Shown: positions 27,542 through 56,660 of the stretch, piece after piece | Position numbering within the stretch: the stretch's first letter is position 1 | Layout: every line of letters starts with the position of its first letter | NCBI GenBank assembly: GCA_030658975.1 | Contig: JAUSBL010000052.1 | Span: forward strand, 42,954-106,953 | Length of the DNA stretch: 64,000 nt | Reading direction: 5' to 3' | Source of the DNA: Candidatus Latescibacterota bacterium | GTDB lineage: Bacteria > Krumholzibacteriota > Krumholzibacteriia > LZORAL124-64-63 | Notes under the pieces: generated by a model | Databases searched by the model: none | Seen by the model: only the letters and a program-made list of their open reading frames with translations | Told to the model about the DNA's origin: nothing | Translations under genes and position numbers: made by a program

Positions 27542-28327
27542 TTACCGATACAGCGTCTTGACCGTGCCCCAGGTCATGTCCTCGTTGGCGACGGTGCCCA
27601 GGTCCTGGAACGTGATGTTCGCCCAGTCGACCTGGACGTAGCCGTTCAGGTCGCCCTGCTGCAGGAACTGCAGGAAGTCGCCGCCGACCTGGGCGTTGTC
27701 GAGCATGCCCCAGGTCCCGTAGGGCTCGGCGGGGTTGCCCATGTCGAAGGCCAGCGCGCCGCTGGTGTACGGCGTGCCGCCGATGGTGACCTTGTACTCG
27801 ATCGTCGCCGGGGAGCCCGCGTTGAGGCTGTTGGGCATGTACACGACTTCGGCGTGCACGGTCTCGCCCTTCACGTAGTGCAGGCCCTGCGAGGCGGTGA
27901 AGCTGTAGAAGGGCAGCCGGCCGCCGAAGCAGGCGATCTCGCCGTCGTTGGTGCGGAAGTTGAAGGCTCCGCCCACGGCCTGGGACCACCACGGGGCGAT
28001 GGCCAGCGTGGCCTCGGCCTCGCCGGTGCCGCTGATGGTCAGGTCGCAGCTGTAGCTGAACCCGTCGCCGTTGGCGAAGTTCTGGGCGACGCCGCCGTCG
28101 GCGAAGCGCCAGTTGTGGCGGCTGCCCCAGCCCGCGCCGCACATGACCTTCTGCTCGTGGATGGAGACCAGGGCGCTGTAGTTGTTGGTGCTGGTGACGG
28201 TGCCCAGGGGGCAGTCGTTCCAGATCCGCTCGGTGATTACGGCGCCGTTGGGCACGTTGGTGGCCAGGGCCACCGACGAGATGGCCAGCAGCAGCGCCAG
28301 CAGCATCAGCTTATGAGTCGTCTTCAT
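27542..28327 (-). CDS. Secreted hypothetical protein (signal peptide, 4 Cys)
   Basis: MKTTHKLMLLALLLAISSVALA signal peptide. No recognisable family. Within the T9SS/TBDR operon. Confidence 0.6.
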   Translation of the reverse strand: MKTTHKLMLLALLLAISSVALATNVPNGAVITERIWNDCPLGTVTSTNNYSALVSIHEQKVMCGAGWGSRHNWRFADGGVAQNFANGDGFSYSCDLTISGTGEAEATLAIAPWWSQAVGGAFNFRTNDGEIACFGGRLPFYSFTASQGLHYVKGETVHAEVVYMPNSLNAGSPATIEYKVTIGGTPYTSGALAFDMGNPAEPYGTWGMLDNAQVGGDFLQFLQQGDLNGYVQVDWANITFQDLGTVANEDMTWGTVKTLYR

Positions 28328-28435
28328 GTTGAGTCTCCCTGTGTTGTTGATCGTTCGTTCGCTCGGATCAGGATCCCGTTCCGTTTCTTGCTGACTCGCC
28401 TCCTCTCTTCTCGCTTCCCGTGCGTGTCTTCCCTC

Positions 28436-30059
28436 TCAGCGCACCAGGATGCAGCGTTTCCAGACCTTCTCCCGGTCGGACTCCAGGGAGTAGAAATAGG
28501 CACCGCTGGGCAGGCCCTCGAAGTCGAGGGTGACCTGGTGCCCCCCTTTGTCCTGCGATTCGTCGACGTAATTGCGGACCATCCTGCCGCGGGCGTCGTA
28601 CACGCTGAGCGTGACGCGGCCCGGCTGCGCCAGGCTGTAGGCGACGGTCGTGATGCCGTTGCAGGGGTTCGGCGAGTTCTGGCCGAGTACGAGGCCGGAC
28701 GCGGCCGCGTCCCCGGCCGCCACGGTCGTCGCGGCCGTGAAGCCGGCCAGTTCCAGGCCGCGGCAGACGTCGGGGTTGCCGCCGAAGCGCTCCCAGACCG
28801 ACCCGGTGCGGTAGTTCTCGATCATCATGATGATGGGGCCCTGGTCGATGCCCAGGTAGTCCTGCGCCCACCAGAAGCGCGTCAGGTTGAACGCGTCCTT
28901 GAAGCCGTACTCGCCCCACAGGGCCAGGCGGAAGGAGTCCCAGAACTTGTGCAGCGTGGGGATGACGATCTCCGGCGCGAAGGCGATCGAACCGCCCGCC
29001 GCCGTCGGGGAGATCGTGCCGTTGTCGTTCTGGCCCGGGGGCGCGCCGTGGGCCACGTAGCCGTCGGGATCGATCGACGCCGTCAGCCCCCACACGTCCC
29101 CCGCGTAGCCGACCCAGCCGCGCGGGTTGGCGATGCAGTACTCGCGGGCGGCGAGCGTCGCCCGGCGGGAGTTCTCGTGGTAGGTGATGCCCCGGTTGCG
29201 CATGTAGGCGTCCTGGATGTGACGGAAATCGATCCAGCAGTGGCTGTACTGGTGGCCGAAGAGGGGGGGGAAGATCACGTACGTCTGCCCGTACTGGGTT
29301 CCCCACCAGTAGCCGAGCGTCCAATTATACCACGTCCAGGCGGGCACCGGATGGGTCGGCGAGCCGATGGCCAGGATGTAGAGGATCATGGCCTCGTTGT
29401 AGCCGGTCCAGTCGCCGAAGCCGGAAAAGCCCGTTCCGGGCTTCCAGCCCATGCGGATGCCGTTGCCGCCGTTGCGCATGAAATCCCAGTCCACGCGGTA
29501 GTAGATGGAGTCGGAGAGGGCGCGCAGGTGGGTTTCGCGGTCGCCGGGGCCGTCGAAGTACTCCTTGGCGTCGAGGATGCCGGCGATCAGCAGCGCCGTG
29601 TCGATCGACGACAATTCGCAGTCCCAGGTGCGGACGCCCGTATTCAGGTCCAGGAAGTGGTAGAAGAACCCCTTGTAGCCGTTGACGTTGACCGCTTCGG
29701 GGCCCTGGGGCACGCTCCACAGCTTCTCCAGCCCGCGGATGATGCGCTCGCGCGCCACGTCGCGGGCGACCCAGCCGTGATCGACGGCGATGCAGTAGGC
29801 GGAGTAGCCGAAGCCCTGCGCGGCGATGCTGCAGACCGACCAGTCCTGGCTGCCGTCCTTGATCAGGCCGGAGCCGACGCTGGCCTCCTCCCAGAAGTAG
29901 TCGAACGCGGTGTGCTGCAGGGTGTCCAGCAGAGCCTCGGTGGTCAGGGCCCGGGCGCTGGGGACCGGAGCGAACAGGGCCGCGGCGACCAGCGCGACGA
30001 AGAGCGCAACCGACAGGGACCGCCGACGGCCGGGTTCGCGCTGCTGGGTGGTCGACATG
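28436..30059 (-). CDS. Six-hairpin glycoside hydrolase-like protein (GH144/DUF3131-like, putative endo-beta-1,2-glucanase) with T9SS C-terminal sorting domain
   Basis: ORF trimmed to ATG ~30059 (MSTTQQ..., GGAGG SD), signal peptide. GFFYHFLD, FGHQYSHCWIDFRHIQDAYM blocks shared with gene at 54117..55616. C-terminus LGQNSPNPCNGITTVAYSL...LSVYDARGRMV...GAYFYSL is a Por_Secre_tail-type CTD. Confidence 0.7.
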
Positions 30060-30081
30060 TCGGTGCCTCCGGTTTGCGGGA

Positions 30082-31101
30082 CTAGAACCTGATCAGGAAC
30101 GAGAGCCGGTGCGTCGCCTCGAGGTAGTCGTGGCTCGCCCACGCGTAGTCGAACTGGTAGCGGTTCGCGCCGAGATCGCCGCCGACGCCGAAACCGCCGG
30201 TCAGGCCCTGCTCCGAATCCTCCTGGAACAGCGTCTGGTAGCCGAGGCGCAGCGCGAACAGCTCGCGCCAGGCCCACTCGGCGCCCAGGTTCACGCTTTC
30301 GGTGTTGTCGTTCGGGTGCAGGGCGTCGCAGACGAACAGCAGCTGGTTGTCGTCGTCGAGGCAGTACGGGACGCTGACTCCCAGGCGGAACTGGATCGGC
30401 ACCGGGAAGCGGTCGGTGGACTGCTCGCCGGGCAGGGCGCTGTTGTCGCCGTGGATGTCGGGGTCCTCGTCGTACTGGATGGCGAGGTCGCGGCCCGAGT
30501 AGCGGCCCTGCGTGCCGATGTTCGTCAGGCAGAAGCCCAGGCTGATCCCGTCGTCGGTCAGCCGGTAGTGCGTGCCCGCGTTGAAGGTCAGCACGTTGGT
30601 CGACGTGTGCCAGACGCGCTCGTTCACGTAGTTCAGCTGGATGCCGGCGGTGAACCGGCTGGTGACGCGGCGGCCGTAGCCCAGGCCGAGCGCGGCGTTG
30701 CCGACGTTGAACTTCTCGCCCGTGCCGAGGGGCTCGTCGACGGTGCGCACGTCGATGTCGCCGGACTTCAGCGAGGTGATGCTGGCGAACAGGTTGCCGC
30801 CGCCGACCGGCAGCAGCGCCGCCGCGTAGTCGTAGCTGATGTCCGCGAACCAGAAGCTGTGCGTGAACTGGATCTCGGCCGACTCCGGCAGGCCGATGGC
30901 GCCGGTGTTGAAGTAGACCGCTTCGACGCCGCCGGCCAGGCCGACGCCGGCGTTGCCCATGCCGGCGTGGCGGGCCCCGGGCTCGATGCGCAGGAACTGG
31001 CCGATGGTCGTGCCGACCTTCGACTGGGCCATGGCCTGGCCGCTCAGGAGCACCGTCAGCAGTACAAGCGCCGCTCGCTTCATGTCTCTCCTCGCGCTCA
31101 T
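30082..31101 (-). CDS. PorV/PorQ-family T9SS outer-membrane beta-barrel protein
   Basis: Extracted from 1195-aa artefact. ATG 31101 overlaps upstream stop (ATGA). Signal peptide. GARHAGMGNAGVGLAGGVEAVYFNTGAIGL matches the PorV/LptO N-terminal motif. Ends ...SFLIRF (C-terminal Phe). Confidence 0.7.
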   Translation of the reverse strand: MSARRDMKRAALVLLTVLLSGQAMAQSKVGTTIGQFLRIEPGARHAGMGNAGVGLAGGVEAVYFNTGAIGLPESAEIQFTHSFWFADISYDYAAALLPVGGGNLFASITSLKSGDIDVRTVDEPLGTGEKFNVGNAALGLGYGRRVTSRFTAGIQLNYVNERVWHTSTNVLTFNAGTHYRLTDDGISLGFCLTNIGTQGRYSGRDLAIQYDEDPDIHGDNSALPGEQSTDRFPVPIQFRLGVSVPYCLDDDNQLLFVCDALHPNDNTESVNLGAEWAWRELFALRLGYQTLFQEDSEQGLTGGFGVGGDLGANRYQFDYAWASHDYLEATHRLSFLIRF

Positions 31102-34100
31102 TTGATGACCGCGAATTTGCCCGTGTATTCCTGCGCGTCGTCGGTGCGGACGTGGTAGATGTACAGGCCCGGCGCGACGTCGAGGTTGTCCTTGGTCCGC
31201 AGGTTCCACGCCACGTAGCCGTCCAGAGAATCCTCGTTGCGCAGCGTGTCGACCAGCTCGCCGCGGACGTTGTAGATCCGGATCGTGCAGCTGGACGTCA
31301 GGCCGCGGAACTCGAGGCGGCGCTCGCCGCGGCCCGAGACCGCGTAGCGCTCCGGCTCGAAGCTCGCCGAGCCGATGTAGGGGTTCGGCACGACGTACGG
31401 CGCGAAGCCGACGCGCGCGGCCGCCTCGTCGATGCGCGAGCCCGTCGTCGTGAAGACGAAGACGTCGTCGGCCGCGAAGGGGCGGTTCAGGCGCAGCGTG
31501 TATTCGTCGCCGGCGCCCGGGGGGGACGCGGGGGCCGGCGTGTCGGCCGCGTTCAGCTGGAAGCGCCAGGTCACGACCGGCGTGGTCGGCTGTTCGGGCA
31601 GGTACGTCACCACGTCGATGATGTCGTTGACGTGGCTCAGGGTGCCGTCGCCGTCGATGTCGCGGAAGCGGAAGTCGAGCGGGATCTCGCCGTCGCGCGC
31701 CAGCGCCGCGACCGTGAACTTCGCGGGGCGCGCCGGCCAGAACGGCATGGCGATGGAGTTGCCCTCGGCCACGTCGCTGAAGCGGATCACGATGTCGTCC
31801 GGGAAGCCCGGCCGCAGGCGGTTGATCGGCAGCACGATCTGGTAGAGGACGGCCAGTTCGGCGTCGGTGTCGCCCGTCGCGGAGAATCCCGAAGCGGCCT
31901 CGTCCACGCTGACGGCCCGGGCCGAACTGATCAGGGGCATCATGCCGGCGCCGACCTGGCCGACGCCCAGGGCGTCGAAGTCCGAGCCGCTGGTGAACAG
32001 GATCTCGCCGGTGGTGCTGTCGACCAGGGCGTAGGACGTGGCGCGCAGGCTGTCCGCCGACGGGGTCGCGAAGCGGATCTTGAACAGGTGCCCGTCGGGG
32101 ACGATGTCCGAGTTCAGGATCGCGACGGAGATGGAGCCGAAGCCGCGCCCGGCCACCTGAGTGGCCGTGTCCGCTGTCGCGGGCACGTACCCCAGTGCGC
32201 GTGGATTGGGCCGCACGTCCACCACGTTGGGCGGCAACACGAGCCCTCCCCGCGGGGTCCGCGAGGGAGCGATGGCGTTCTCGGAAGGGTAGAATTCGAA
32301 CGCCTCGGAACCGTAGTCGTAGGCCGTGACCGCGTAATAGTAGCGCTGCCCGTTGGTCACGCTGTAGTCGGTCCAGGTGTGGGTGAGGCCGCTGTCGGTG
32401 CCGAGGTAGTAGGCCACGCCGTCCACGATCTGGGTCGAGAAGCCGCTGCGGCCGTTGTCGAGGTCGAACTGGGCGATGGGCCGGCCGTTGCCGAGGGGAC
32501 CGCTGCCGGTGCCCGTGGTGATCACCTGGGGATCGACGAAGTCCGGATCGGTGGAGCGGTAGATGCGGTAGCCCTCGAAGTCGAACTCGCCCGTCACGGG
32601 GTCGGCGCTGTTTTCGGCGACGTCGTTCCAGGCCAGGCGCACGAAGCCGTCGCCGGCCTCCGCCGTCAGGGTCGGCAGCGGCGGCGGCACGGCGAAGCGG
32701 TAGTTGGCGTCGTAGATGCGCTGCACGGTGCGGACGCCGCGGCGCAGCTCCTCCAGGTCGGCGCCGTAGGCCAGGGCCAGGCTGAAGCGCTCGGTCTGGC
32801 CGGCGCGCAGCTTGAAGGGACCCGACGCGAAGAAGAAGCCGATGTTGTAGTTGGAGGCCAGCGGCTCGCCGAAGCGCACCTCCGGGTCGGGATCGGTGAA
32901 CTGCTCGTACAGGCGCCGCGGCCAGTCGTCGCTGTTGGTGAAGAAGACGATGCCGTCGGTCGTCTGGTCGGGGTTGCCCTGCCCGGCGCGGATGCGGTTG
33001 ATCCGGAAACCGGTCAGGCCGATCTGGTCGGACTCGTTGAGGTCGGTGCCGTCGAAGTTGGGCTCGCCCTCGGTCGGGATGCCGTCGCGCTCGCCCTCGT
33101 CGCCGGTGTCGTCGAGGCCGTCGGCGCCGATGTCGTGGTTGGCGGCGACCCAGTCCAGGTCCTCGTCGCCGGTCCACCACAGGCCCTCGACGTAGGCGGG
33201 CATCTCCGCGAGCGGACCGTAGGTGATCTCGAAGCGGGCCAGGTCGTAGTTCGCCGCGACGTGGGCGGCGATGGCGTCCTGGCCGACGATCAGCGCGCCG
33301 GGGCCGCCGTCGCGCCGCTCGTCGACGAAGCCGTCCTCGTCGTTGTCGATGAGGTCCAGGGCGTTGCCCGGCGTCTCCATGAAGGCGTAGCCCAGGTAGC
33401 CGGTGCGGGCGCAGGCGCTGCTGAGGTCGCGGCCGTGGCCGTAGCGGTCCCAGGTGTAGACCAGGTTCAGGATCTGGTCGTCGAAGGTGCGGTCGAAGTA
33501 GGCGTTGTCGTCGTCGGACTCGTAGATGCCGTCGCAGGACAGGGCCGAGCCGCCCACGCCGGAGTCCATGTAGAGGCCGAACACGACGTTGTCGTCGTAG
33601 TCGGTGGTGCCCTCGTTCGTGATGTCGTAGTGCCAGAAGATCACGTTGCGGGCCTGCGGGTTGGCCCACTGGAAGCCGCGGACCTCGAGGCGCAGGCCCA
33701 GGCCGTTGCGCGTGGAGTCGCGGGAGTCGGGGAAGAAGTACCAGGCGTCGTAGTAGTCGTCGTCCAGGACCACGTAGCTCTCCTGGTCGGCGACGATCTG
33801 CTTGCCGAAGTAGCCGTTCCAGGCGCCGGGCCAGCCCGGGTCGGCGGGGTCGTCGAGCCGGTCGGGCCAGGAGGGGGGCCAGGTCCGCGGGTCGTTGCTG
33901 ATGGCCGGCGAGAGCCCGGAGTTGAGCGCGGGGTCCGCCTGCAGGTAGCCCGGGCGCGGTTCGAAACGCATCATGCGGTTGGTGTAGGGGCTGATGCCCT
34001 GCCGCTCGCGGAAGCCGGTCTCCATGATGTACGACTCGACGCCGTTGCCCTGCACGATCTTCGTCAGCACGAACGGCGTGATGCCGTCGCTGTAGTTCAT

Positions 34101-34388
34101 GCCGCTGCCCTTGGGCACCTCGACCGAGTGGAAGACGCTCAGGTCCACGTTGGACGGGTTCGGGGGGTAGTCGCCCACCATGCCGTAGTTCCAGAAGATG
34201 GTGCGGATGTTGTTGGCGTCGTGCTGGCCCGAGCGCTCCAGCGTGTGCCGGCCCCGCTGCTCGGGCGGCACGGGCGTGGGCACGTCGGCGGACGCCGTCA
34301 GGGCGAGCGCCACGGTCATCAGCGCTGTCAGGGCAGCCAGGGCCGCGTTCTCTGGTCTGTACATCCTGCGGGGCCTCCGTTCGCGCAT
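31098..34388 (-). CDS. Large T9SS cargo protein (~1096 aa) with Asp-rich Ca-binding (TSP3-like) repeats, Fn3-like region and C-terminal T9SS sorting domain
   Basis: Extracted from 1654-aa artefact. Start ATG 34388 (ATGA overlap with TBDR stop) or ATG 34364 (GGAGG SD). Repeats DNDEDGFVDE, DGLDDTGDEGERDGIPTEGEPNFDGTDLNESD. CTD ...VVPNPYIGSA...IRIYNVRGELV...GLYIYHV...GKFAVIK. Confidence 0.7.
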   Translation of the reverse strand: MRERRPRRMYRPENAALAALTALMTVALALTASADVPTPVPPEQRGRHTLERSGQHDANNIRTIFWNYGMVGDYPPNPSNVDLSVFHSVEVPKGSGMNYSDGITPFVLTKIVQGNGVESYIMETGFRERQGISPYTNRMMRFEPRPGYLQADPALNSGLSPAISNDPRTWPPSWPDRLDDPADPGWPGAWNGYFGKQIVADQESYVVLDDDYYDAWYFFPDSRDSTRNGLGLRLEVRGFQWANPQARNVIFWHYDITNEGTTDYDDNVVFGLYMDSGVGGSALSCDGIYESDDDNAYFDRTFDDQILNLVYTWDRYGHGRDLSSACARTGYLGYAFMETPGNALDLIDNDEDGFVDERRDGGPGALIVGQDAIAAHVAANYDLARFEITYGPLAEMPAYVEGLWWTGDEDLDWVAANHDIGADGLDDTGDEGERDGIPTEGEPNFDGTDLNESDQIGLTGFRINRIRAGQGNPDQTTDGIVFFTNSDDWPRRLYEQFTDPDPEVRFGEPLASNYNIGFFFASGPFKLRAGQTERFSLALAYGADLEELRRGVRTVQRIYDANYRFAVPPPLPTLTAEAGDGFVRLAWNDVAENSADPVTGEFDFEGYRIYRSTDPDFVDPQVITTGTGSGPLGNGRPIAQFDLDNGRSGFSTQIVDGVAYYLGTDSGLTHTWTDYSVTNGQRYYYAVTAYDYGSEAFEFYPSENAIAPSRTPRGGLVLPPNVVDVRPNPRALGYVPATADTATQVAGRGFGSISVAILNSDIVPDGHLFKIRFATPSADSLRATSYALVDSTTGEILFTSGSDFDALGVGQVGAGMMPLISSARAVSVDEAASGFSATGDTDAELAVLYQIVLPINRLRPGFPDDIVIRFSDVAEGNSIAMPFWPARPAKFTVAALARDGEIPLDFRFRDIDGDGTLSHVNDIIDVVTYLPEQPTTPVVTWRFQLNAADTPAPASPPGAGDEYTLRLNRPFAADDVFVFTTTGSRIDEAAARVGFAPYVVPNPYIGSASFEPERYAVSGRGERRLEFRGLTSSCTIRIYNVRGELVDTLRNEDSLDGYVAWNLRTKDNLDVAPGLYIYHVRTDDAQEYTGKFAVIK

Positions 34389-37054: not shown

Positions 37055-37118
37055 GTCAGGTCATCCTCCGTGGTTGCGCGGCGGCGGCGCCGATGTCGGT
37101 CGGCGCCGCCGCTCGGGG

Positions 37119-39004: not shown

Positions 39005-39049
39005 TAGGTACCTCCAGGGTGTCGGCGACGTTGGCGTGACGATTGGGGA

Positions 39050-40102: not shown

Positions 40103-40202
40103 TCTTCTCCCGCCAACGCCTCCTGCATTGCGTCCGCACGCGCTCCCTCTCTGGCGTGCGCCCTGGCGATCCGCGCACAGGATGTGGTTTCCGTGTGCGC
40201 CA

Positions 40203-40216
40203 TGTAAACGGTTTCA
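40203..40216. promoter_or_regulatory. Candidate LacI-family operator (TGTAAACGGTTTCA)
   Basis: 14-bp imperfect palindrome with the AANCGNTT core typical of LacI-family operators. Lies in the lacI / GH94 divergent intergenic region. Confidence 0.35.
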
Positions 40217-40244
40217 TAAATTCAACCACGTGTCAACCCCCCAA

Positions 40245-45562: not shown

Positions 45563-46353
45563 AACGCTGGCTGCTGGCGGGAGGCCTGATCATGACGCTG
45601 TTCAACGCCGCGCTCACGGCGGCCGGCGGCCACGCCACCGGTTTCCTCGACCGCACCCTGACGCGGGACGGACGGGCCCACCGCTACCAGGTGTTCGTGC
45701 CGGCGGATTTCACGCCGGACCGCGCCTGGCCCGTGATCCTGTTCCTGCACGGCAGCGGCGAGCGCGGCGACGACGGAATGCGCCAGACGCAGGTCGGCCT
45801 TCCGGCGGCGATCCGCTGGAGCCGCGAGCGCTTCGAGGCGATCGTGGTGCTGCCCCAGCTGCCGGCCGACCGCACCTGGACCGGGGACATGGCGTCGCTG
45901 GCCCTGGCGACGCTCGACGCGGCCGTCGCCGAATTCCACGGCGATGAGGACCGGCTCTACCTGACCGGGCTGTCGCTCGGCGGCTACGGCACGTGGCTGC
46001 TGGCGGCCGAGCATCCCGGAAGGTTCGCGGCGATCGCGCCGGTGTGCGGGGGCATCGTGCCGCCGCCGGACAGGGTCTCCTCGGTGACGCAGCTGCCGCT
46101 GACCGTGGGTGCGGCCGATCCGTACGCGACGGCGGCGGCGCTGATCGGCGAGACGCCGACCTGGATCTTCCACGGGGCCGACGACACGGTGATCCCGCCG
46201 TCGGAGTCGCGGCGGATGGCCGAGGCGCTGAAGGCGACGGGCAACGAGGCACGGTTCACTGAGTTCCCGGGCGTGGGGCACGGGGCGTGGGATCCGGCTT
46301 ATGGGAGCGCGGAGCTTTGGGCTTGGATGTTCGCGCAGCAGCGGGGAGACTGA
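45559..46353 (+). CDS. Secreted alpha/beta-hydrolase esterase (phospholipase/carboxylesterase / PHB-depolymerase-like)
   Basis: ATG 45559 overlapping GH1 stop (ATGA), GGAGG SD. Signal peptide. LHGSGERGDDG and nucleophile elbow GLSLGGYG. 264 aa. Confidence 0.75.
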   Translation: MKRWLLAGGLIMTLFNAALTAAGGHATGFLDRTLTRDGRAHRYQVFVPADFTPDRAWPVILFLHGSGERGDDGMRQTQVGLPAAIRWSRERFEAIVVLPQLPADRTWTGDMASLALATLDAAVAEFHGDEDRLYLTGLSLGGYGTWLLAAEHPGRFAAIAPVCGGIVPPPDRVSSVTQLPLTVGAADPYATAAALIGETPTWIFHGADDTVIPPSESRRMAEALKATGNEARFTEFPGVGHGAWDPAYGSAELWAWMFAQQRGD

Positions 46354-46389
46354 CCCAAGGCACCTCATATGGCTAATATTGTATAGATT

Positions 46390-46410
46390 TCAAGATATCG
46401 CTGACTTTAT
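46390..46410. repeat. AT-rich motif TGTATAGATTTCAAGATATCG in convergent intergenic region (esterase / membrane protein)
   Basis: Shares TGTATAGAT...TTCA...GATAT(AT)CG with 27037..27069. Contains EcoRV-type GATATC palindrome. Confidence 0.4.
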
Positions 46411-46434
46411 GACGACGCGTTGGGTCCGACGCCG

Positions 46435-47768: not shown

Positions 47769-47769
47769 G

Positions 47770-47900: not shown

Positions 47901-47947
47901 AGAATATGGAGTTTGATGGTTGACGCACGCTCTGCCAACATCAGATG

Positions 47948-50900
47948 TCAGCGTTCCCGCCAGATGACGGTCGACGGCAAGGCCGTCAGGAGAATGTCGC
48001 CAGTGAATGTCGATCGCCGTCCATTCACTTCGACACCGGCGACCTCCCTCATCGGCGGCATCCGCAGCACGACCCCGCCCGCCGGCACCTTCAACCCGCC
48101 ACCGACGACCGCCGTCACCACCTCGCCGTCACGCCGCAGCGTGAAGTCGAGCGGTCCGTACTCGGTCGCCAGCCCCTTCACGCTCACGCCACCCTCCTGC
48201 AGCCACGCCGCCGGCACCCCCGCGCCGATCACCAGTGAGCCGTTCTCCTCATCGGCGTAAGCGAACATATCCAGAACCGACCGCACGAAGTCCGTGCCGA
48301 CCCAGGTGTGGGGCATGTCGCCGAGGTAGCGCGGCACGCGCTCCTCGCGGGCGACGACCTCTCCCCACTCGCGCCAGCCGGCCGGCCGGCGCAGCGACAG
48401 GAAATAGTCGACCAGCTCGTGCGCGCGGTCGCGCCAGCCCAGGCGCACGAAGGTGCCGATCGTGCGCGTCTCGTACGGCGTCATCGCGTCCCACTGGCCG
48501 CCGTCGCGGCGGTCGACGAAGAACTCCCAGTACTTCTCGAAGGTGCGCTCGATCGCGCCCGGGGGCGCCAGCGCGGCGCCGCCGGTCGGGGTCAGGGCGA
48601 TCGTCGTCGAGGTGGCGTCGAAGTCGCCCAGGTCGGCGCAGCCCGGCACGTAGTCGATGCCGTGCCTCGCCATGGCCGCGGCGATCGACGCGCGCAGGTC
48701 GGCGGCGAACTCGTCGTGGATCGCGGTCATCCGCGCCCGCTCGTCGTCCAGGTCCAGGTCGGCGGCCAGGGCCGCGGCGTCGCGGAAGCCGCGCAGGGCG
48801 AAGAAGTCGTCCCAGTAGGAGTGCATGGGCTTGGCGGAGTAGCCCTCGTGGCTGATCGAGGGCGGCAGCAGGCCGAAGAACTCGCGCTTGTCCGGTGTTC
48901 GCCACTCGGCGGTGCGGCGCTGCCGGCGCAGGCCGTCCAGGTAGTCGGCAGCGGCGGCGACGCGCGGCCACATCCGCTGCAGCAGTTCGCGGTCGCCGGT
49001 GTGGCGCCAGACCTCGGTGACCAGGAAGATGAACTGGCCGCTGCTGTCGTGCTCGGGCACCGGGTCGGCGCCGCGACGGTCCACGACGCAGGGGATCTTG
49101 CCGTCGGCGTACTGGTGCGACGCGTACCACTCCAGGAAGTCGACGGCCGGCGCGGTCAGGCCCATCTGCAGCAGGGCCCAGCCCGTCAGCGAGCCGTCGC
49201 GGATCCAGGAGCGGTTGTAGCTGCGCGTGCCGGGTTGGATGCCCGCGCCCGCGCGGTTGACCAGCACGTAGCCGAGCTGCGCGCGCATCGTTTCGAGGAC
49301 CTCGCGCGCCGCGGGCGGTCCGGCGATGACGGCGCCGTCGAGGCGCGCGTGCCAGTCGCGGCGGCCGGCCTCGTGAGCGGCGGCGGCGAAGCTCGTGGCC
49401 TCGCCGGCCGACAGCGGCGGCGGCGGCGGCGCGTCCGGATCGGGGTCGACGAGGAGCACGACCTCGGCCGAGTCGCCGGGCGCCAAATCGAAGGGCCACG
49501 ACAGCACGCCCGACGCGCCGCCGATGTCGCAGGTCACCGAGCGCGCCGCCGGCAGCCGGCCGTGGCGCAGGTGGTCGGCGACGACGTCGCCGCCGTGGAA
49601 GTTGACGGCGCCGAAGCGGCCGCCCGGCGTCAGCGCGATCGCCGCGGGCGCGCCGTCGAGGAACACCACGCCGCCCGACTGCGCCAGGGTGCGGATCGGC
49701 GCCGCGCCGCCCGGCCGGTTGAGCGTCTGCGAGGGCGGGTTGACCTGGAAGGGGCGGATCGCCAGGTCGAGATCGACCCGGCGCGGGACGGCCCCGCGGT
49801 TGAGCACGCGGTAGCGCGCGACGACGCCCCGCAGCCCGGGCTCTTCCGAGACGAAGGCCGCGACCGTCAGGTCCAGGTCGCCGGTGCGCCGGCGCACCGA
49901 AGGCATCGGCAGGAAACCGTCGACCAGCTCGTGCGAGGTCTCGGCGTCGGCCCAGGTCAGCAGGCGGCCGTCGGTGCGCAGGAAGGGCTCCACCGCGCCG
50001 CGGTAGGGGCCCGTCTCGAGTCCGCCGTCCTCGTCGAAGAGCACCTCGCGCGGGTCGGCGTCGCGGCCGACGACGGTCCAGTAGACCTGCTCGCCGGAGA
50101 TGCCGCGCGGGTAGCTGCCGCGGGGCGATTCGGCCGCGATCGCCGCGTGGAAGGCCTCGCGCGAACGCGACCACGCCAGGGGCATGACCCGGATCGCGGC
50201 GAGTTCGGGCGGGAACTTGGTGGACGAGCGCAGCAGCAGCACGCGCAGGCGGCGGGCTTCGCCCTCGGGCAGGTAGAGGTGGTCGCGCCCGCCGTCGCTG
50301 CCCGAGACGATCATCAGCTGGCGCCACGATTCTCCGTCGTCCGAAGCCTCGACGACGTAGTCGAGGGCGTGCCGGTCGGGCCGCCAGTCCAGCTGCAGGC
50401 CGCCGAACTCGCGCGAGCCGCCGAAGTCCAGGTCCAGGGCGGGACTGCGGTCCGTCAGGTCCGGGGTCCAGGACGTCGTCGCGTCGTCGTCCAGGGCGGC
50501 GGCCGCCTCGCCGGTGGTCGCCGTCGCGACGGGCGCCGCATCCACGGCGGTCGGCGGCGGCAGTTCCCGCAGCGTCAGGTCGTCGATCCAGACGCTGCCG
50601 AAGCCCCCCTCGGCCGCGGTCACGACGATTTCGACGGCCGAGATCCCGCGCAGCGGCGCGCCGCCGCCGGGCCCCCAGGCGAACTCGAGCTGGCGCTTCT
50701 TGATCGTGACGGTCCGCCACTGCGCCGGGAACTCGATCGCGCGCTCGACGCGCCACCAGACGTTCTCGCCGGTCTCGTCCACCAGCTTGAACTCCAGCGT
50801 GTTGACCGGGCACGCCCCGCGCAGACGGAACGAGAAGGCGTAGTTCTCCGGCAGCGCGACGTCCACCTCGCGCCGCGCGATGGCGTAACCGCCCCCCGTG

Positions 50901-51121
50901 AACCCGAAATCCAGCCGCAGCGCCCCGTCGTCGTCCGCGAGCGCCATCGTCACGCCGTCGGCCGGCAGCGCGCTCCAGTCCTTCGAGGTCCCGTCGGAGA
51001 TCACCAGCGGCGCCCCGGCCGGCGTGATCGGATCGCTGTTCGCCGCGGGACCGCGGCATCCCCCGGCGAAGACGAGCCCGCAGACCATTATCCCGGCCGT
51101 CAATAGCTTCGCGATGACCAT
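47948..51121 (-). CDS. Lipoprotein with discoidin/F5-8-type-C-like domains and C-terminal (alpha/alpha)6 six-hairpin glycoside-hydrolase-like domain
   Basis: Lipobox LVFAGGC. ...DDDATTSWTP... discoidin-like. SYNRSWIRDGSLTGWALLQMG resembles the W-x-RD-S-[AG]-L motif of GH15/GH63-type six-hairpin enzymes. Last gene of ABC-transporter operon (ATG 51121, 1 nt after permease stop). Confidence 0.65.
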   Translation of the reverse strand: MVIAKLLTAGIMVCGLVFAGGCRGPAANSDPITPAGAPLVISDGTSKDWSALPADGVTMALADDDGALRLDFGFTGGGYAIARREVDVALPENYAFSFRLRGACPVNTLEFKLVDETGENVWWRVERAIEFPAQWRTVTIKKRQLEFAWGPGGGAPLRGISAVEIVVTAAEGGFGSVWIDDLTLRELPPPTAVDAAPVATATTGEAAAALDDDATTSWTPDLTDRSPALDLDFGGSREFGGLQLDWRPDRHALDYVVEASDDGESWRQLMIVSGSDGGRDHLYLPEGEARRLRVLLLRSSTKFPPELAAIRVMPLAWSRSREAFHAAIAAESPRGSYPRGISGEQVYWTVVGRDADPREVLFDEDGGLETGPYRGAVEPFLRTDGRLLTWADAETSHELVDGFLPMPSVRRRTGDLDLTVAAFVSEEPGLRGVVARYRVLNRGAVPRRVDLDLAIRPFQVNPPSQTLNRPGGAAPIRTLAQSGGVVFLDGAPAAIALTPGGRFGAVNFHGGDVVADHLRHGRLPAARSVTCDIGGASGVLSWPFDLAPGDSAEVVLLVDPDPDAPPPPPLSAGEATSFAAAAHEAGRRDWHARLDGAVIAGPPAAREVLETMRAQLGYVLVNRAGAGIQPGTRSYNRSWIRDGSLTGWALLQMGLTAPAVDFLEWYASHQYADGKIPCVVDRRGADPVPEHDSSGQFIFLVTEVWRHTGDRELLQRMWPRVAAAADYLDGLRRQRRTAEWRTPDKREFFGLLPPSISHEGYSAKPMHSYWDDFFALRGFRDAAALAADLDLDDERARMTAIHDEFAADLRASIAAAMARHGIDYVPGCADLGDFDATSTTIALTPTGGAALAPPGAIERTFEKYWEFFVDRRDGGQWDAMTPYETRTIGTFVRLGWRDRAHELVDYFLSLRRPAGWREWGEVVAREERVPRYLGDMPHTWVGTDFVRSVLDMFAYADEENGSLVIGAGVPAAWLQEGGVSVKGLATEYGPLDFTLRRDGEVVTAVVGGGLKVPAGGVVLRMPPMREVAGVEVNGRRSTFTGDILLTALPSTVIWRER

Positions 51122-51122
51122 G

Positions 51123-51947
51123 CTATCCCTTTACGCTGCCTGCGGTAATGCCACGAACGAAGAATCGCTGAAAGATCAGGAACACCACCAGCGCCGGCAG
51201 GATCGTGATCATCGACCCGGCCATCATCAGCTCGGTGTCCTGGACGTGCTCGCCGACCAGGCTGGCCAACGCCACGGGCAGCGTCGCCATGTGCCCGTCG
51301 CTGAGCACGATCAGCGGCCACATGAAGTCGTTCCAGGCGCTCAGGAAGGTGAAGGCCGCCAGCGTCGCCAGGATGGGCCGGATGACCGGCAGCACGATGA
51401 CCGCGAAGATGCGGAACTCGCCGGCGCCGTCCACGCGGGCGGCGTCGAGCAGGTCGTCCGAGACGCCCAGCGCGTACTGCCGCACCAGGAAGATGCCGAA
51501 GATGCTGGCCATGTAGGGGACCAGCACGCCGGCGTAGGTGTTGACCAGGCCCAGCTCGCGCAGCAGCAGGAACAGCGGCAGCATGCCCACCTGCGCGGGC
51601 ACCACCAGAGCCGACGCCAGCCGCCTGAACAGGCGGTCGCGCCCGGGGAAGGGCAGCTTGGCGAAGGCGTAGCCGGCCATGGCGTTGATGAAGACCGACA
51701 GGACCGTCGCCAGCACGGTGATCACCGCGCTGTTGAGGAAGGCCCGCGCCATGTCCAGGCGCGTGAACAGGGTCACGAAGTTCTGGAGCGTGGGATCGCG
51801 CGGCAGCAGGTGCGGCGGCAGCGCGTTGGCCTCGCCGGGCTGCATGAAGGCGGCCGCCGCCATCCAGCCCAGCGGCATCAGGCTGATCAGCGCCGTGCTG
51901 ACCAGGGCCGCGTGCAGCACCAGCGACTGCAGGCCGGGGCGCCTCAC
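51123..51947 (-). CDS. ABC sugar transporter permease (MalG/CUT1 family)
   Basis: Extracted from artefact. GTG 51947 overlapping upstream stop (GTGA). EAA-loop DAARVDGAGEFRIFAVIVLP. 6 TM. Confidence 0.8.
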   Translation of the reverse strand: MRRPGLQSLVLHAALVSTALISLMPLGWMAAAAFMQPGEANALPPHLLPRDPTLQNFVTLFTRLDMARAFLNSAVITVLATVLSVFINAMAGYAFAKLPFPGRDRLFRRLASALVVPAQVGMLPLFLLLRELGLVNTYAGVLVPYMASIFGIFLVRQYALGVSDDLLDAARVDGAGEFRIFAVIVLPVIRPILATLAAFTFLSAWNDFMWPLIVLSDGHMATLPVALASLVGEHVQDTELMMAGSMITILPALVVFLIFQRFFVRGITAGSVKG

Positions 51948-52852
51948 GTCCGATCCTTCTGCAGGCGGAACTGCAGCAGCGCGCCCGCCAGGGTGATCAG
52001 CAGCAGCACGACGGCCGTCGCGGACGCCGTCCCGATGCGCCACCAGCGGAAGCCCTCCTCGTACATGAACAGCACCACGCTGCGCGTGCTGCCCAGCGGG
52101 CCGCCCTGGGTCATCACGTAGGGCTCGGCGAAGACCTGGAAGTAGCCGATCATCGTGGTGACGCCGACGAACAGGAAGGTGGGCGCCAGACCCGGCAGCG
52201 TGATGTGGCGGAAGCGCTGCAGGCCGCTGGCGCCGTCGATGGCGGCGGCCTCGTAGAGCTCCGCGGGCACGGCCTGCAGGCCGGCCACGAAGATCAGCAT
52301 GTTGTAGCCGAAGTTCTTCCACACCGCGACCAGCACGATGGCGGGCATGGCCCAGTGCGGGTCGCCGAGCCAGTCGATCGGCCCCAGGCCGACCAGGCCC
52401 AGGATGTGGTTCAGCAGGCCGTAGCGCGGGTGGTAGAGGTAGCGCCAGATGATCGCCACCGAGACCAGCGTGGTCACCACCGGCGCGAAGTAGATGGTGC
52501 GGAACAGCGGGCGCAGGCGCGTCAGCTTGGCGTCGACCAGCATCGCCGCGCCCAGCGACACGGCCACCGACAGCGGGCCGCCCAGCGCGACGAAGAACAG
52601 GGTGTTGCCCAGCGACCGCCAGAAGACGTCGTTCGTGAGCAGGCGCGCGTAGTTCTCCAGGCCGACGAAGCGGGCGTTGCCCGGCGAGCCGATGGCGTAG
52701 ATGTCGAAGTCGGTCAGCCCGAGCAGCAGCCCGGCGATCACCGGCAGGAAGAAGAAGACCAGCAGCAGCAGCAGCGCCGGCGCCAGGAACCACAGCGCGG
52801 CCCGCAGCTGGCGCTTCTCGAGGGGCGATCTCTTCGTGAGCGGCGAACTCAT
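51944..52852 (-). CDS. ABC sugar transporter permease (MalF/CUT1 family)
   Basis: ATG 52852 overlapping SBP stop (ATGA). EAAAIDGASGLQRFRHITLP EAA motif. 6 TM. 302 aa. Confidence 0.8.
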   Translation of the reverse strand: MSSPLTKRSPLEKRQLRAALWFLAPALLLLLVFFFLPVIAGLLLGLTDFDIYAIGSPGNARFVGLENYARLLTNDVFWRSLGNTLFFVALGGPLSVAVSLGAAMLVDAKLTRLRPLFRTIYFAPVVTTLVSVAIIWRYLYHPRYGLLNHILGLVGLGPIDWLGDPHWAMPAIVLVAVWKNFGYNMLIFVAGLQAVPAELYEAAAIDGASGLQRFRHITLPGLAPTFLFVGVTTMIGYFQVFAEPYVMTQGGPLGSTRSVVLFMYEEGFRWWRIGTASATAVVLLLITLAGALLQFRLQKDRT

Positions 52853-54120
52853 GGGTGCCGCTCCCTCTGCGCCAGCCAGCGCCGCTTCTCCAGCATGCGC
52901 GCCACGTCGCGGTCGAGGGCCTCCAGGGCTTCCTGCGGCGCGGCCGCGTCGCGCACCGCCGTCTCCCCGCGCTCGTAGACGCGCGTGGCGATCTGCTCCC
53001 ACTCCGGCAGCTTGGGCGTCGACACCACGTGTTCGAGCTGCGTCCGGAAGGCGCGGGCGCGGGGATCGGTCGCGATGCCCGCCATCTCCCAGGCCTGCTT
53101 GTGGGCGGGCAGGTCGCCGGTCAGCTCGTAGAAGCGGGCCTGCTGCTGCGGGCGCGACAGGAATTCGATGAGCTCCCAGGCGGCGTCGGCGTGTGGTGAG
53201 CTCTTGAAGATCACGAGGCTCGAGCCGCCGGCCAGCGAGACGCCGGGGACGCCGGGCTCGGGGCCCGGCAACGGCGCCGTCGCCCACGCGTCCTGCAGCT
53301 CGTCGGGCAGGCGCCGCTGGAACTCGCCCAGGTTCCAGGGGCCGGTGATGTACATGACGAAGGTGCCGCGGGCGAACTCCTGGTAGAGGTTCGCGATCTC
53401 GTTGTTGGAGACCGGCGGCGCCAGGCCGTCGCGGAACAGGCTCAGGTAGAAGTCGAAGGCGCGGCGGAACTCGGGTCCGGCGAAAACGCCGTAGCCGCGC
53501 TCGACGTCCACCAGCGGGGAGCCGGCCTGCAGCCCGAGGATCACCGTCGGCGGCCACTCGTTCAGCGGCAGCAGGATCCCGTAGCGGCGCACGCCGCCGG
53601 CGGCGGCGACCACGTCGCGCATCGCGGCGCGCCACTCTTCCCAGTCGGCCGGAGGTTCGGGGTGACCGGCTTCGGCCAGCAGGTCGCTGCGGTAGAACAG
53701 CACGCGCGTGTCCACGTACCAGGGCACGCCGTAGAGCCGGCCCTCGAGCACGTTCGTGTCCCAGATCCCGGGGAAGTGGTCGGCCTCGTCGACGACCCCG
53801 CCGGCGGCGATGCGCGCGTCCAGCGGCTCGATCGCGTCCAGCGCGACGAACTCCGACAGCCAGGTGTTGCCCAGCTGGGCGATGTCGGGCGTGGCCTCCC
53901 CGACGTGGGCCGTCAGCAGCTTCTCGTGGGCGGCGGTCCAGGGGATCTGCTGGACCTCGACGCGCACGCCGGGATTCTCGCGCTCGAACTCGGGCATCAG
54001 CTCGCGCACGACCTCGCCCTCGCGGCCCATGGCCCAGAAGCGCAGCGTGGTGCGGCCGTCGTCGTCGCCGCAGCCGCAGCAGAGCGCCAGCAGGACGGCG
54101 ATGCCGGCGGCTCGGCTCAC
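52849..54120 (-). CDS. ABC transporter extracellular solute-binding lipoprotein (family 1, sugar)
   Basis: Extracted from 846-aa artefact. GTG 54120 overlapping upstream stop (GTGA). Lipobox LLALCCGCG. 423 aa, SBP_bac_1-like. Confidence 0.8.
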   Translation of the reverse strand: MSRAAGIAVLLALCCGCGDDDGRTTLRFWAMGREGEVVRELMPEFERENPGVRVEVQQIPWTAAHEKLLTAHVGEATPDIAQLGNTWLSEFVALDAIEPLDARIAAGGVVDEADHFPGIWDTNVLEGRLYGVPWYVDTRVLFYRSDLLAEAGHPEPPADWEEWRAAMRDVVAAAGGVRRYGILLPLNEWPPTVILGLQAGSPLVDVERGYGVFAGPEFRRAFDFYLSLFRDGLAPPVSNNEIANLYQEFARGTFVMYITGPWNLGEFQRRLPDELQDAWATAPLPGPEPGVPGVSLAGGSSLVIFKSSPHADAAWELIEFLSRPQQQARFYELTGDLPAHKQAWEMAGIATDPRARAFRTQLEHVVSTPKLPEWEQIATRVYERGETAVRDAAAPQEALEALDRDVARMLEKRRWLAQRERHP

Positions 54121-55616
54121 GAATCGCCCTGCGCCGCGTCGAGCCAGCCGCCGGTGAATCCCGCCGCCCGCAGGCCGCGCACGATGTGCGGGTTGCCGCG
54201 CAGGCAGCGCCAGACCAGGCCGCTGCGGTGGTTCTCGATCATCAGCAGGATCGGACCCTGGTCGATGCCGAGGTAGTCGGTGTCGTACCAGCCCCGTCCG
54301 GGCACGACGCGCCCGTGCTGCACGGGGACCGCCAGGTCGAAGGTGGGGTTCAGCGCGTCGAGGAACCCGTACGGCCCGAACAGCAGGTCGCCGTGGTCGG
54401 CGCGCATCGCCAGCAGCGTCGGCAGGACGAGTTCCGGGGCGAAGGGCAGGGACGAGGCCGCGGCCGAGGGGCAGACCGTGCCGTCGTCGTTCGCGTCGGT
54501 GAACGAGGCGCCGCGCGCCCAGTAGGTCTCGAAGTGCCGCGTCCGGCCGTCGATGACGAACTGCCCATGGACCGGGCCGTCGCAGGCGGTCAGACCCCAG
54601 AGGCGCTCGCCGTAGCCGCGCCAGTCGCCGGGGTTGTCCAGCGCATAGGCGTACTGCGACCGCGTCGCCCGGCGCGAGTTCTCGAAGTAGTCGAGCCCGC
54701 GTTCCTGCATGTAAGCGTCCCGGATCCCGCGCAGGTCGATCCAGCAGTGGGTGTACTGGTGCCCGAAGAGCGGACCGAAGCCCAGCTGCTCCTCGCCCTG
54801 GAACTCGCCCCAGCGGTAGCCGGCGGTCCAGGCGGACCAGGCTTCGGGGTCGACCGGATACGTCGGCGAGCCGAGGGCCAGCAGGTAGAGGATCATGCCC
54901 TCGCTGTAGCCGCGCCAGTCGTACGGCAGGTGGCCGCTCTCGGGCGTCCAGCCGTGGCCGATGGTGGGCGGCCGGACCTGGGCCCACTGCCAGTCGACCC
55001 GGAAGTAGAGGGAGTCGGCCAGGGCCCGGATCTGCGCTTCGTCTTCGTCGGCGCGGTCGAAGTAGGACTGGCAGCACAGGGCGCCGGCCAGCAGCAGGGC
55101 AGTGTCCACGGTGGACAGTTCGACGTCGGCGAAGCGGGTCCCGGTGTCGGGATCCAGGAAGTGGTAGAAGAAACCGCGGTAGCCGGCCGCTCCGCTGGCT
55201 GTGGTGTCCTGGGGGGCGGTCCACAGGAAGCGCAGGGTGGTCAGGACGCGGTCGGCGGCCGCGGCGCGCGTGACGTAGCCGCGTTCGGCCCCGATGGGGT
55301 AAGCCGTTAAAGCAAAACCTGTTGCTGCAGAACTGGCGAAGGAGCGCGTCGGGGCGCGGTCCGGGGCGAGACCCGTTTGGGGGTTGCACAGGTCCCAGAA
55401 ATATTGGAAAGTCCGCTCTTGCAGAGTGTCGATGAAAGCGGTTTCATGGGCTGGCCCAAAAGAAACCGACTCTTCGATTTCGGCGCGGCGCTCCTGGATC
55501 CCGGCACGGTGCTGGCAGCCGGCGACGAGCCCGCAGATCAGGACGGCGCCCGCGGCCGTCAGCAGACCGCGGCGGCCGGGGCCGGCGGCGCGGAGATCGT
55601 GGCGCGACGTTTCCAT
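54117..55616 (-). CDS. GH144/DUF3131-like six-hairpin glycoside hydrolase lipoprotein (putative endo-beta-1,2-glucanase), paralog of 28436..30059
   Basis: METSRH... lipobox LICGLVAGC. GFFYHFLD, VELSTVDTALLLAGAL, FGHQYTHCWIDLRGIRDAYM blocks shared with the T9SS-linked paralog. Confidence 0.7.
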   Translation of the reverse strand: METSRHDLRAAGPGRRGLLTAAGAVLICGLVAGCQHRAGIQERRAEIEESVSFGPAHETAFIDTLQERTFQYFWDLCNPQTGLAPDRAPTRSFASSAATGFALTAYPIGAERGYVTRAAAADRVLTTLRFLWTAPQDTTASGAAGYRGFFYHFLDPDTGTRFADVELSTVDTALLLAGALCCQSYFDRADEDEAQIRALADSLYFRVDWQWAQVRPPTIGHGWTPESGHLPYDWRGYSEGMILYLLALGSPTYPVDPEAWSAWTAGYRWGEFQGEEQLGFGPLFGHQYTHCWIDLRGIRDAYMQERGLDYFENSRRATRSQYAYALDNPGDWRGYGERLWGLTACDGPVHGQFVIDGRTRHFETYWARGASFTDANDDGTVCPSAAASSLPFAPELVLPTLLAMRADHGDLLFGPYGFLDALNPTFDLAVPVQHGRVVPGRGWYDTDYLGIDQGPILLMIENHRSGLVWRCLRGNPHIVRGLRAAGFTGGWLDAAQGDS

Positions 55617-56638: not shown

Positions 56639-56660
56639 CCCCCGCGCCCAAGGAGAATGT

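Follow-up and report, generated by a model that had tools for sequence, protein, structure and literature searches.

What does a cluster of glycan hydrolases, a TonB-dependent receptor and a sugar importer, gathered around a LacI-type regulator, do for an uncultured bacterium, and on which glycan does it act? We addressed this question for positions 27,542 to 55,616 of a 64,000-nt stretch of DNA (the window) from contig JAUSBL010000052.1 of Candidatus Latescibacterota bacterium (GenBank assembly GCA_030658975.1). The cluster is probably a LacI-repressed utilization locus for linear or cyclic bacterial beta-1,2-glucans in a bacterium of the FCB (Fibrobacteres-Chlorobi-Bacteroidetes) superphylum, a reading supported by homology to characterised proteins, by conservation of catalytic and clan residues, by synteny, and by a shared operator-like palindrome. 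Beta-1,2-glucans are bacterial polymers of symbiosis, virulence and osmoprotection, and the enzymes that degrade them have mostly been discovered by mining gene clusters of this kind. An earlier note on the same DNA had described an outside-to-cytoplasm beta-1,2-glucan pathway under LacI control; the core of that description stands, while its type assignment for the phosphorylase, its count of glucanase-bearing operons and the novelty of its outline do not.

Because a G+C content of about 70% makes raw open reading frame lists noisy, genes were called by third-position GC (GC3) and frame plots, with starts, signal peptides and lipoboxes checked by eye, and the window proteins were annotated by Pfam and NCBIfam scans. 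The GC3 frame analysis, the scans and an independent public gene call on an identical contig all gave the same gene map, and the scans recovered every component that the earlier note had listed (genes, domains and signal peptides), small coordinate slips aside. The genes form three predicted operons, in which most junctions are either 4-nt overlaps of start and stop codons or gaps of less than 110 nt. On the minus strand, from first gene to last, lie the LacI regulator, a CBM9-like protein, a TonB-dependent receptor, a 1088-aa protein, a PorV/PorQ-family barrel, a glycoside hydrolase family 144 (GH144) protein and a 261-aa protein; divergent from these, on the plus strand, are genes for a GH94 protein, a GH1 beta-glucosidase and an esterase; and a second minus-strand operon holds another GH144 gene followed by those for a binding protein, two permeases and a 1057-aa lipoprotein. 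GH144 genes thus occur in two of the three operons, not in all three as had been claimed. For comparison we fetched homologous loci, numbered L001 to L085, among which L001 (Pseudoduganella flava) and L002 (Massilia mucilaginosa) come from cultured bacteria.

Predicted glucanases, importer and phosphorylase

The two hydrolase paralogs, GH144a (28436..30058, minus strand; one nucleotide short of the boundary of 30059 given before) and GH144b (54117..55616, minus strand), are 45% identical to each other, and profile and homology searches assign both to GH144. They score 270 and 269 bits against PF10091 (E=1.5e-80 and E=3.6e-80), about ten times the cut-off of 27, and are homologous to the characterised enzymes CpSGL and XcSGL. 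The best solved relative of both is XcSGL (XCC2207, structure 8XUL), with 357 bits for GH144a and 549 bits for GH144b, and CpSGL is second (213 and 164 bits, respectively). XCC2207 is a GH144 enzyme for which beta-1,2-glucan hydrolysis has been demonstrated (PMC12102758). In HMMER alignments to 8XUL, the XcSGL residues E239 (the acid), F286 and Y367, which are characteristic of the SGL clan, correspond to E, F and Y in both paralogs; that the 8XUL chain is the E239Q mutant fixed its numbering offset, which is 14.

The sorting signals of the two paralogs differ and agree with separate compartments. GH144a has a signal peptide and a type-A C-terminal sorting domain of the T9SS (type IX secretion system) that exceeds the curated thresholds of two models (PF18962, E=2.5e-10, 41 bits against a cut-off of 27; TIGR04183, 31.2 bits against 23), and is predicted to be a surface endo-beta-1,2-glucanase. 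GH144b combines an RR (twin-arginine-like) motif with an LVAGC lipobox, which marks it as a putative periplasmic lipoprotein homologue of the endo-beta-1,2-glucanases, and it heads the operon of the ATP-binding cassette (ABC) importer. Both placements had been proposed in the earlier note and fit these signals.

The importer genes that follow GH144b encode a lipoprotein solute-binding protein (52849..54120, minus strand; SBP_bac_1 E=2.6e-42; LCCGC lipobox) and two permeases of CUT1 type, also on the minus strand. One permease (51944..52852; PF00528 E=6.1e-20) is closest among NCBIfam models to UgpA and MalF, and the other (51123..51947; PF00528 E=5.6e-15) to UgpE and MalG, all below their cut-offs. 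Searched against the PDB, the binding protein matches 3UOR with 443 bits and Lin1841 (5YSB), the Listeria binder of Sop3-5, with 218 bits, and the next binder scores 116 bits; after 3UOR, the homology to Lin1841 is thus clearly above that to other sugar binders, which places the protein, by homology, in the Lin1841-type (sophoro-oligosaccharide-binding) lineage. The entry 3UOR, a protein of Xanthomonas (Xanthomonas citri), is annotated only generally, as a sugar-binding protein of an ABC transporter, with no ligand assigned, and a search for its gene context found nothing useful.

For the GH94 protein (40341..44195, plus strand), the expected type was not recovered. Its gene encodes 1284 aa with the GDWND motif and no signal peptide, and matches PF06165 in two stretches (391 bits) as well as PF17167 (381 bits), so that both the supersandwich and the catalytic domain of GH94 are represented. 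The nearest characterised relative is the cyclic glucan synthase Cgs (8RF9/8RF0), with 803 bits and an alignment that runs over the whole length of the window protein to Cgs residues ~1531-2790, followed by chitobiose and cellobiose phosphorylases (247-262 bits). The earlier note had read the protein as a Lin1839-type beta-1,2-oligoglucan phosphorylase (SOGP), an assignment that we reject: LpSOGP (5H3Z), which is of this type, reaches only 22.5 bits (E=1.5e-4), below chitobiose, cellobiose, laminaribiose and cellodextrin phosphorylases. The supporting argument from size also fails, as the solved SOGP has 1122 residues (5H3Z chain), and the proposed choice between a Lin1839-type enzyme and a cellobiose or laminaribiose phosphorylase left out a third option, the Cgs type. 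The catalytic aspartate is kept, with CGDWNDGMNRV of the window protein aligned to GGDWNDGMNRV of the synthase, and the second D of GDWND falls by count at 8RF0 position 2528; in RrCGS, D2528 is the catalytic Asp of the synthase's phosphorolytic domain (PMC11842490). Given the whole-length match to Cgs and the conserved D2528, the window GH94 reads as a predicted free-standing copy of the chain-trimming module of a cyclic glucan synthase. A GH94 of Cgs type would still point to beta-1,2-glucan, through a lineage other than that of Lin1839.

The rest of the plus-strand operon is as the earlier note described it, with a GH1 beta-glucosidase and an esterase encoded after the GH94 gene and all three genes divergent from LacI. 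The GH1 gene (44192..45562, plus strand; PF00232 E=9.7e-158) overlaps the GH94 gene by 4 nt (GTGA) and appears to be translationally coupled to it, and its product scores 591 bits with TIGR03356, above the cut-off (478) of this BGL equivalog model. The putative accessory esterase (45559..46353, plus strand) has a signal peptide and multiple esterase and hydrolase matches, consistent with a secreted alpha/beta-hydrolase like polyhydroxybutyrate depolymerases or CE1 enzymes.

Predicted operators and conserved gene order

The regulator gene (39050..40099, minus strand) encodes a LacI-family repressor (PF00356 E=2.7e-15; Peripla_BP_3 E=3.8e-39), and two operator-like palindromes accompany the locus. 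O1, TGTAAACGGTTTCA (40203..40216), lies in the divergent region between LacI and GH94, and O2, TGAAAGCGGTTTCA (55433..55446), lies inside the 5' coding part of GH144b, about 170 nt in. The degenerate pattern TGNAANCGNTTNCA that describes them occurs twice in the 64 kb, where 0.01 occurrences are expected, and among the 85 fetched loci it is almost confined to orthologous loci. We found O1 at the same intergenic position in seven of these (L002, L022, L081, L082, L083, L084 and L085), and O2 at the same intragenic position (~+150 to +170) in L081, L082 and L083, with one mismatch in L022. At the nucleotide level, 16 nt of O2 are identical in an orthologue of 54% identity, and the O2 region (55431-55448) consists of the rare codons CAT GAA ACC GCT TTC, three of them A/T-ending, in a genome with a GC3 of ~0.9. 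The rarity of the palindrome, its conserved positions and the A/T-ending codons support common LacI control of all three operons through these predicted operators. O2 itself has the appearance of a regulatory site that constrains codon choice.

The composite locus is present in at least five distinct loci (L022, L081, L082/L083, L084 and L085) of related metagenome-assembled genomes (MAGs), at ~54-91% identity. Its close relatives are labelled Gemmatimonas, Krumholzibacteria and Eisenbacteria, all of them FCB-group lineages. Elsewhere the modules are recombined: L004 has the order 1088-aa gene, PorV-like gene, GH144, GH94; L001 has GH144, binding protein, permease(s), 1057-aa gene, GH1, GH94; and L002 has the gene set of L001 without GH1 and with a LacI gene. 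The 1057-aa gene is further linked with GH94 in L025, and GH94 with GH144 in L044; across at least three phyla, the 1057-aa lipoprotein co-occurs with GH144, the ABC genes and GH94.

A neighbour-joining tree of 81 GH94 sequences places the window protein in a subclade of seven members, and five of the six others have a GH144 gene, the 1057-aa gene or both within 10 kb; the sixth is on a 5-kb contig. Outside the subclade, a single one of the 74 homologue loci (L044) has GH144 nearby. The wider family of ~1280-aa GH94 proteins spans at least 598 genome loci in many bacterial phyla, as well as in Methanothrix and Methanospirillum MAGs.

Predicted surface proteins, proposed pathway and rival readings

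The receptor (34388..37054, minus strand) has an N-terminal CarboxypepD_reg domain (PF13620 E=6e-20), a Plug domain and a TonB-dependent barrel (PF00593 E=4.4e-24). It reaches 64.5 bits against the SusC/RagA model TIGR04056 (cut-off 368), over the N-terminal domain only, and Pfam scans of all locus proteins at E<=0.01 matched no SusD family. The locus is therefore not a SusC/SusD locus, and the description of the receptor as lacking a SusD partner was correct. Divergent from GH144b, and beyond the coordinates considered in the earlier note, Pfam matches delineate an operon for PBP_like_2, a TPR protein, ExbB, ExbD, ExbD and TonB (TonB_C) at 55709..61018 on the plus strand. The same genes flank GH144b in L081, L082 and L083, wherever the fetched sequence reaches, which makes this TonB energising system a conserved neighbour of the locus; it probably energises the receptor, a link that we infer.

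Between LacI and the receptor lies the gene of the CBM9-like protein (37119..39053 or 37119..38993, with alternative starts; minus strand), which scores 26.7 bits against CBM9_1 (cut-off 23.4) and consists of two repeated modules, each with an IDGVLNEAAW-type motif, and a tail resembling a T9SS C-terminal domain (CTD). The public gene call adopts the version of 644 aa, whose start overlaps the stop codon of LacI. A phmmer search of the protein against the PDB (E<=10) found no relative. On the other side of the receptor and the 1088-aa gene, the outer-membrane barrel gene (30082..31083, minus strand) encodes a signal peptide and is assigned to the PorV/PorQ family by NF033709 (167 bits, cut-off 90). 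A homologue search with the barrel retrieved orthologues only (57-97% identity), and in L004, L022, L084 and L085 the orthologue follows the 1088-aa gene. The last gene of this operon (27542..28327, minus strand) encodes a 261-aa secreted protein with a signal peptide and no Pfam or NCBIfam match; homologues follow the T9SS-sorted GH144 in L084 and L085, in the latter as three tandem copies (16229-19110), and the gene is also called in L086.

The 1088-aa secreted protein (31098..34364, minus strand) has no Pfam domain and ends in a T9SS-CTD-like domain, with weak matches of its C-terminal 70-99 residues to the PorZ C-terminus (E=1e-4, the best NCBIfam match), Por_Secre_tail (0.0035) and CHU_C (0.0052). 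Among the matches listed, its orthologues are 66-94% identical, more conserved than the locus enzymes; an exact copy is recorded from a MAG labelled Candidatus Latescibacteria, and the family comprises 3226 clusters at 50% identity. In seven distant relatives, Pfam scans found nothing beyond a weak T9SS CTD or propeller repeats (Reg_prop in some). An AlphaFold2 (AF2) model has a mean predicted local distance difference test score (pLDDT) of 58, with the N-terminal 560 residues below 50, comes from a shallow alignment (65-94% identity), and is confident for residues 560-1088 only, which form beta-sandwich domains. A Foldseek search with the model returned generic Fn3/Ig folds only, with TM scores below 0.1; PorZ and PorU were among the matches and were not counted as evidence. 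The N-terminal half is rich in invariant Asp/Gly motifs (DNDEDGITDE, GDEDMDW, GEGDG..PT.GEPNFD) that resemble calcium-binding loops.

By comparison, the 1057-aa lipoprotein at the end of the ABC operon (47948..51121, minus strand) gave a confident AlphaFold model (50 homologues, pLDDT 90.9), with an N-terminal beta-sandwich, a CBM32 domain, a supersandwich, an (alpha/alpha)6 barrel and a C-terminal beta-sandwich. This matches the discoidin and six-hairpin architecture that had been proposed for the final gene of the operon. The protein has more than 1000 homologues, none of them named, no curated GH family membership and no detectable relation to a solved enzyme. From its model, it appears to be a confidently folded (alpha/alpha)6 glycosidase-like protein outside the known families, and is a candidate for a new glycosidase family.

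Combining these assignments, we propose the following route. At the cell surface, T9SS-sorted GH144a would cut the polymer, while the CBM9-like binder with its two modules and the 1088-aa protein, both with CTD-like ends, would probably hold the glycan beside the TonB-dependent receptor; the 1088-aa protein may itself be held on the operon-encoded PorV/PorQ-like barrel. The receptor, probably energised by the adjacent ExbB-ExbD-ExbD-TonB system, would import oligosaccharides into the periplasm, where GH144b and the 1057-aa lipoprotein would trim them and the secreted esterase may strip acyl substituents. The Lin1841-like binding protein and the two permeases would then import sophoro-oligosaccharides into the cytoplasm, where the GH94 of Cgs C-terminal type would phosphorolyse them to glucose 1-phosphate and GH1 would hydrolyse the remainder to glucose. 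LacI would bind O1 and O2 and be released by an oligosaccharide effector.

Several observations weigh against this scheme. O2 overlaps a conserved peptide, ETAF, so that part of its conservation could come from coding constraint. The locus encodes a binding protein and two permeases and no ABC ATPase gene; the ATPase is presumably encoded elsewhere and shared, as is common for CUT1 transporters. At least 73 of the 80 GH94 homologue loci examined have no GH144 within 10 kb, so the GH94 family as a whole is not tied to a beta-1,2-glucan pathway, and to our knowledge no stand-alone GH94 protein of Cgs type has been characterised. L081 has the esterase gene, whereas L082 lacks it and none was found in L022. 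For the surface proteins, the CTD of the 1088-aa protein and the tail of the CBM9-like protein (matched by FlgD_ig, E=0.024) are both below the thresholds of the T9SS models, and the barrel is below those of the equivalog models (PorV, 64 against 250 bits; PorQ, 73 against 220; PorV2, 39 against 325); within the 64-kb window, the PorV/PorQ-family gene is the only T9SS-related machinery, and the core genes (SprA/Sov, PorK/L/M/N and PorU) would be located elsewhere in the genome. The gene content that the earlier note gave for the LacI-headed operon is upheld, while its T9SS label for the CBM9-like and 1088-aa proteins comes down to sub-threshold CTD matches (E 0.003-0.02).

Could the locus instead turn over or remodel the cell's own periplasmic beta-1,2-glucans, osmoregulated or cyclic, rather than scavenge external ones? 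The nearest characterised relative of its GH94 is the domain that adjusts chain length in the synthase itself, GH144b is predicted to be a periplasmic lipoprotein, and XcSGL comes from Xanthomonas campestris, whose genus is described as making an alpha-1,6-cyclized beta-1,2-glucan. We nevertheless consider such a role improbable, as domain scans of the locus and its orthologues found no GT2/GT84 synthase or GH189 cyclase domain, and the hallmarks of uptake and catabolism are in place: a GH144 sorted to the surface, a TonB-dependent receptor, an ABC importer and LacI regulation. It is similarly unlikely that the beta-1,2 call over-reads family names and that the substrate is another beta-glucoside or a mixed glycan (laminarin, cellodextrin and sophoroside glycolipids are examples). 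In favour of it, GH1 enzymes form a generic beta-glucosidase family, chitobiose and cellobiose phosphorylases are the nearest relatives of the GH94 after Cgs, and no specificity can be assigned to the 1057-aa and 1088-aa proteins; yet three independent components (GH144 twice, the Lin1841-like binder and the Cgs-type GH94) agree on the glycan and co-occur across phyla, and the GH144 activities in the cited literature, endo-glucanases and a sophorose-releasing exo enzyme, are all on beta-1,2 linkages (PMC12102758, PMC12369401, PMC8861115).

A further reading, in which the three operons are neighbours by descent only and the CBM9-like, 1088-aa and PorV-like proteins have a separate task at the surface (adhesion or T9SS biogenesis in general, for example), has very little in its favour as a whole. 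It draws on the weak CBM9 match being the single link of these three proteins to carbohydrate, and on the uninformative AF2 model and fold search for the 1088-aa protein. Against this, their genes always stand between LacI and the T9SS-sorted GH144 in the orthologues, L004 keeps the 1088-aa gene, the PorV-like gene, GH144 and GH94 together in a different arrangement, the gaps within the operon are 14-108 nt, and O1 lies upstream of it. We therefore retain uptake and catabolism of beta-1,2-glucans as the preferred function. Beyond it, we can offer only tentatively, as a joint proposal more doubtful than probable, that the receptor, the 1088-aa protein and the barrel form a SusD-free, T9SS-assembled glycan-capture complex and that the 1057-aa lipoprotein founds a new GH family. 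By analogy with PorQ holding PorZ, the barrel may then hold the uncleaved CTD of its partner, and beta-1,2-glucans may be the substrate of the 1057-aa family, which could for instance open their cyclic or substituted forms.

Known systems and flanking genes

The closest precedent in outline is the SGL cluster IALB_1177-1187 of Ignavibacterium album, whose pathway is a prediction and whose GH35 transglycosylase, IaSGT, is its only characterised component (PMC8861115). In the route proposed for it, an extracellular GH144 comes first, followed by a TonB-dependent transporter, a periplasmic GH144, an ABC transporter that includes a homologue of Lin1841 and, last, a GH94 of Cgs C-terminal type (PMC8861115). 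The analogue of a polysaccharide utilization locus (PUL) in a lineage outside the Bacteroidetes, which the earlier note presented as new, had thus been outlined in 2022 (Kobayashi et al., PMC8861115), and I. album is, like the organism of the window, an FCB-group host outside Bacteroidota. As far as the published description allows comparison, the window has GH1 in place of the GH35 and GH3 components, and adds LacI with conserved predicted operators, the CBM9-like protein, the 1088-aa protein with its CTD-like end, the PorV/PorQ-like barrel, the 261-aa protein and the 1057-aa lipoprotein.

Other systems share parts of the scheme. The closest solved relatives of both GH144 proteins and of the binding protein, XcSGL and 3UOR, are Xanthomonas proteins, from X. 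campestris and X. citri, respectively; the host is a proteobacterium without a T9SS. The genes lin1839-1841 of Listeria innocua (SOGP of GH94, GH3 beta-glucosidase and a sophoro-oligosaccharide-binding protein) follow the same logic of ABC import, cytoplasmic phosphorolysis and beta-glucosidase action, and Lin1841 is homologous to the window binding protein (218 bits); the window differs in the lineage of its GH94 (LpSOGP, 22.5 bits), in GH1 replacing GH3, and in a two-membrane host with outer-membrane and surface steps. The cluster SGR_2422-2427 of Streptomyces griseus encodes an esterase, an ABC transporter, a GH1 beta-1,2-glucosidase and a GH193 glucanase (PMC12369401). It resembles the window in combining GH1, an esterase, an ABC importer with a Lin1841-like binder and a beta-1,2-glucanase, but the glucanase is of GH193 instead of GH144, GH94 is missing, and the host is Gram-positive.

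The SusC/SusD PULs of Bacteroidota, including the SGL cluster of B. thetaiotaomicron (BT_3567), likewise pass from surface enzymes and binders through a TonB-dependent receptor to periplasmic trimming under a dedicated regulator, whereas the window has no SusD, T9SS CTDs or CTD-like ends instead of lipoprotein anchors on its predicted surface proteins, and ABC uptake at the inner membrane. In the T9SS attachment complex of Porphyromonas gingivalis, the CTD-bearing surface protein PorZ, which is built of beta-propeller domains, is paired with PorQ, much as the gene of a protein with a CTD-like end adjoins that of a PorV/PorQ-family barrel here; the Reg_prop propeller repeats in some distant relatives of the 1088-aa protein are a further likeness. 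Equivalog scores far below threshold, the unrelated or unassigned N-terminal half of the 1088-aa protein and the position of the genes inside a catabolic operon all separate the two, and we regard the likeness as a resemblance only, not as membership.

What sets the locus apart is a group of genes linked to the T9SS (those of the CBM9-like protein, of the 1088-aa protein and of the barrel within the operon), the 1057-aa lipoprotein, the conserved predicted operators and the adjoining TonB system; for Krumholzibacteriota, Latescibacteria or Gemmatimonadota, our literature search turned up no account of this architecture. The interest of this well-delimited, widely conserved cluster lies mainly in its two large conserved proteins of unassigned family and in the operon-embedded PorV/PorQ-like barrel. 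Given their location among beta-1,2-glucan genes, the 1057-aa and 1088-aa proteins are prime candidates for new families of enzymes or binding proteins, and the presence of the ABC/GH94 module, 1057-aa protein included, in cultured Pseudoduganella flava and Massilia mucilaginosa makes its role directly testable. The T9SS/TonB part offers a concrete example of a way in which glycan capture may be arranged in FCB lineages that lack SusD; with a PorV/PorQ-family barrel encoded in a substrate-specific operon, it could also shed light on the surface retention of T9SS cargo. Were the proposed capture complex real, FCB phyla outside Bacteroidota would have a second architecture that solves the SusCD problem, and the 1088-aa family, with its ~3200 clusters at 50% identity, would be a generic component of such complexes.

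Between the GH94 operon and the ABC operon, a stretch of lower GC (0.65) at 46373-47768 carries a SatD-family gene and an Arg-rich open reading frame on the minus strand. We rejected it as a part of the system and regard it as a variable insert: in L081 an AAA_14/DUF4143 gene fills the same slot, and in L082 one for an LVIVD/FlgD_ig protein does, which marks a variable junction. Rfam and tRNA scans of the whole window gave no rRNA, tRNA or Rfam match. Scans of both locus halves for sigma-70 promoters and intrinsic terminators found fewer sites than in shuffled sequence, and so were of no help in defining the operons. To the left of the locus (window positions 1-27484) lie genes of polysaccharide synthesis and export, among them Poly_export/SLBB (8508-10943), a GT4 glycosyltransferase (13037-14101), DUF6337 (18443-19759) and Polysacc_synt_2 (22210-24165), followed by a multihaem cytochrome (25140-26999) and a DsrC/TusE protein (27074-27484). 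Lower GC (0.59-0.64) marks the first 8 kb of the window.

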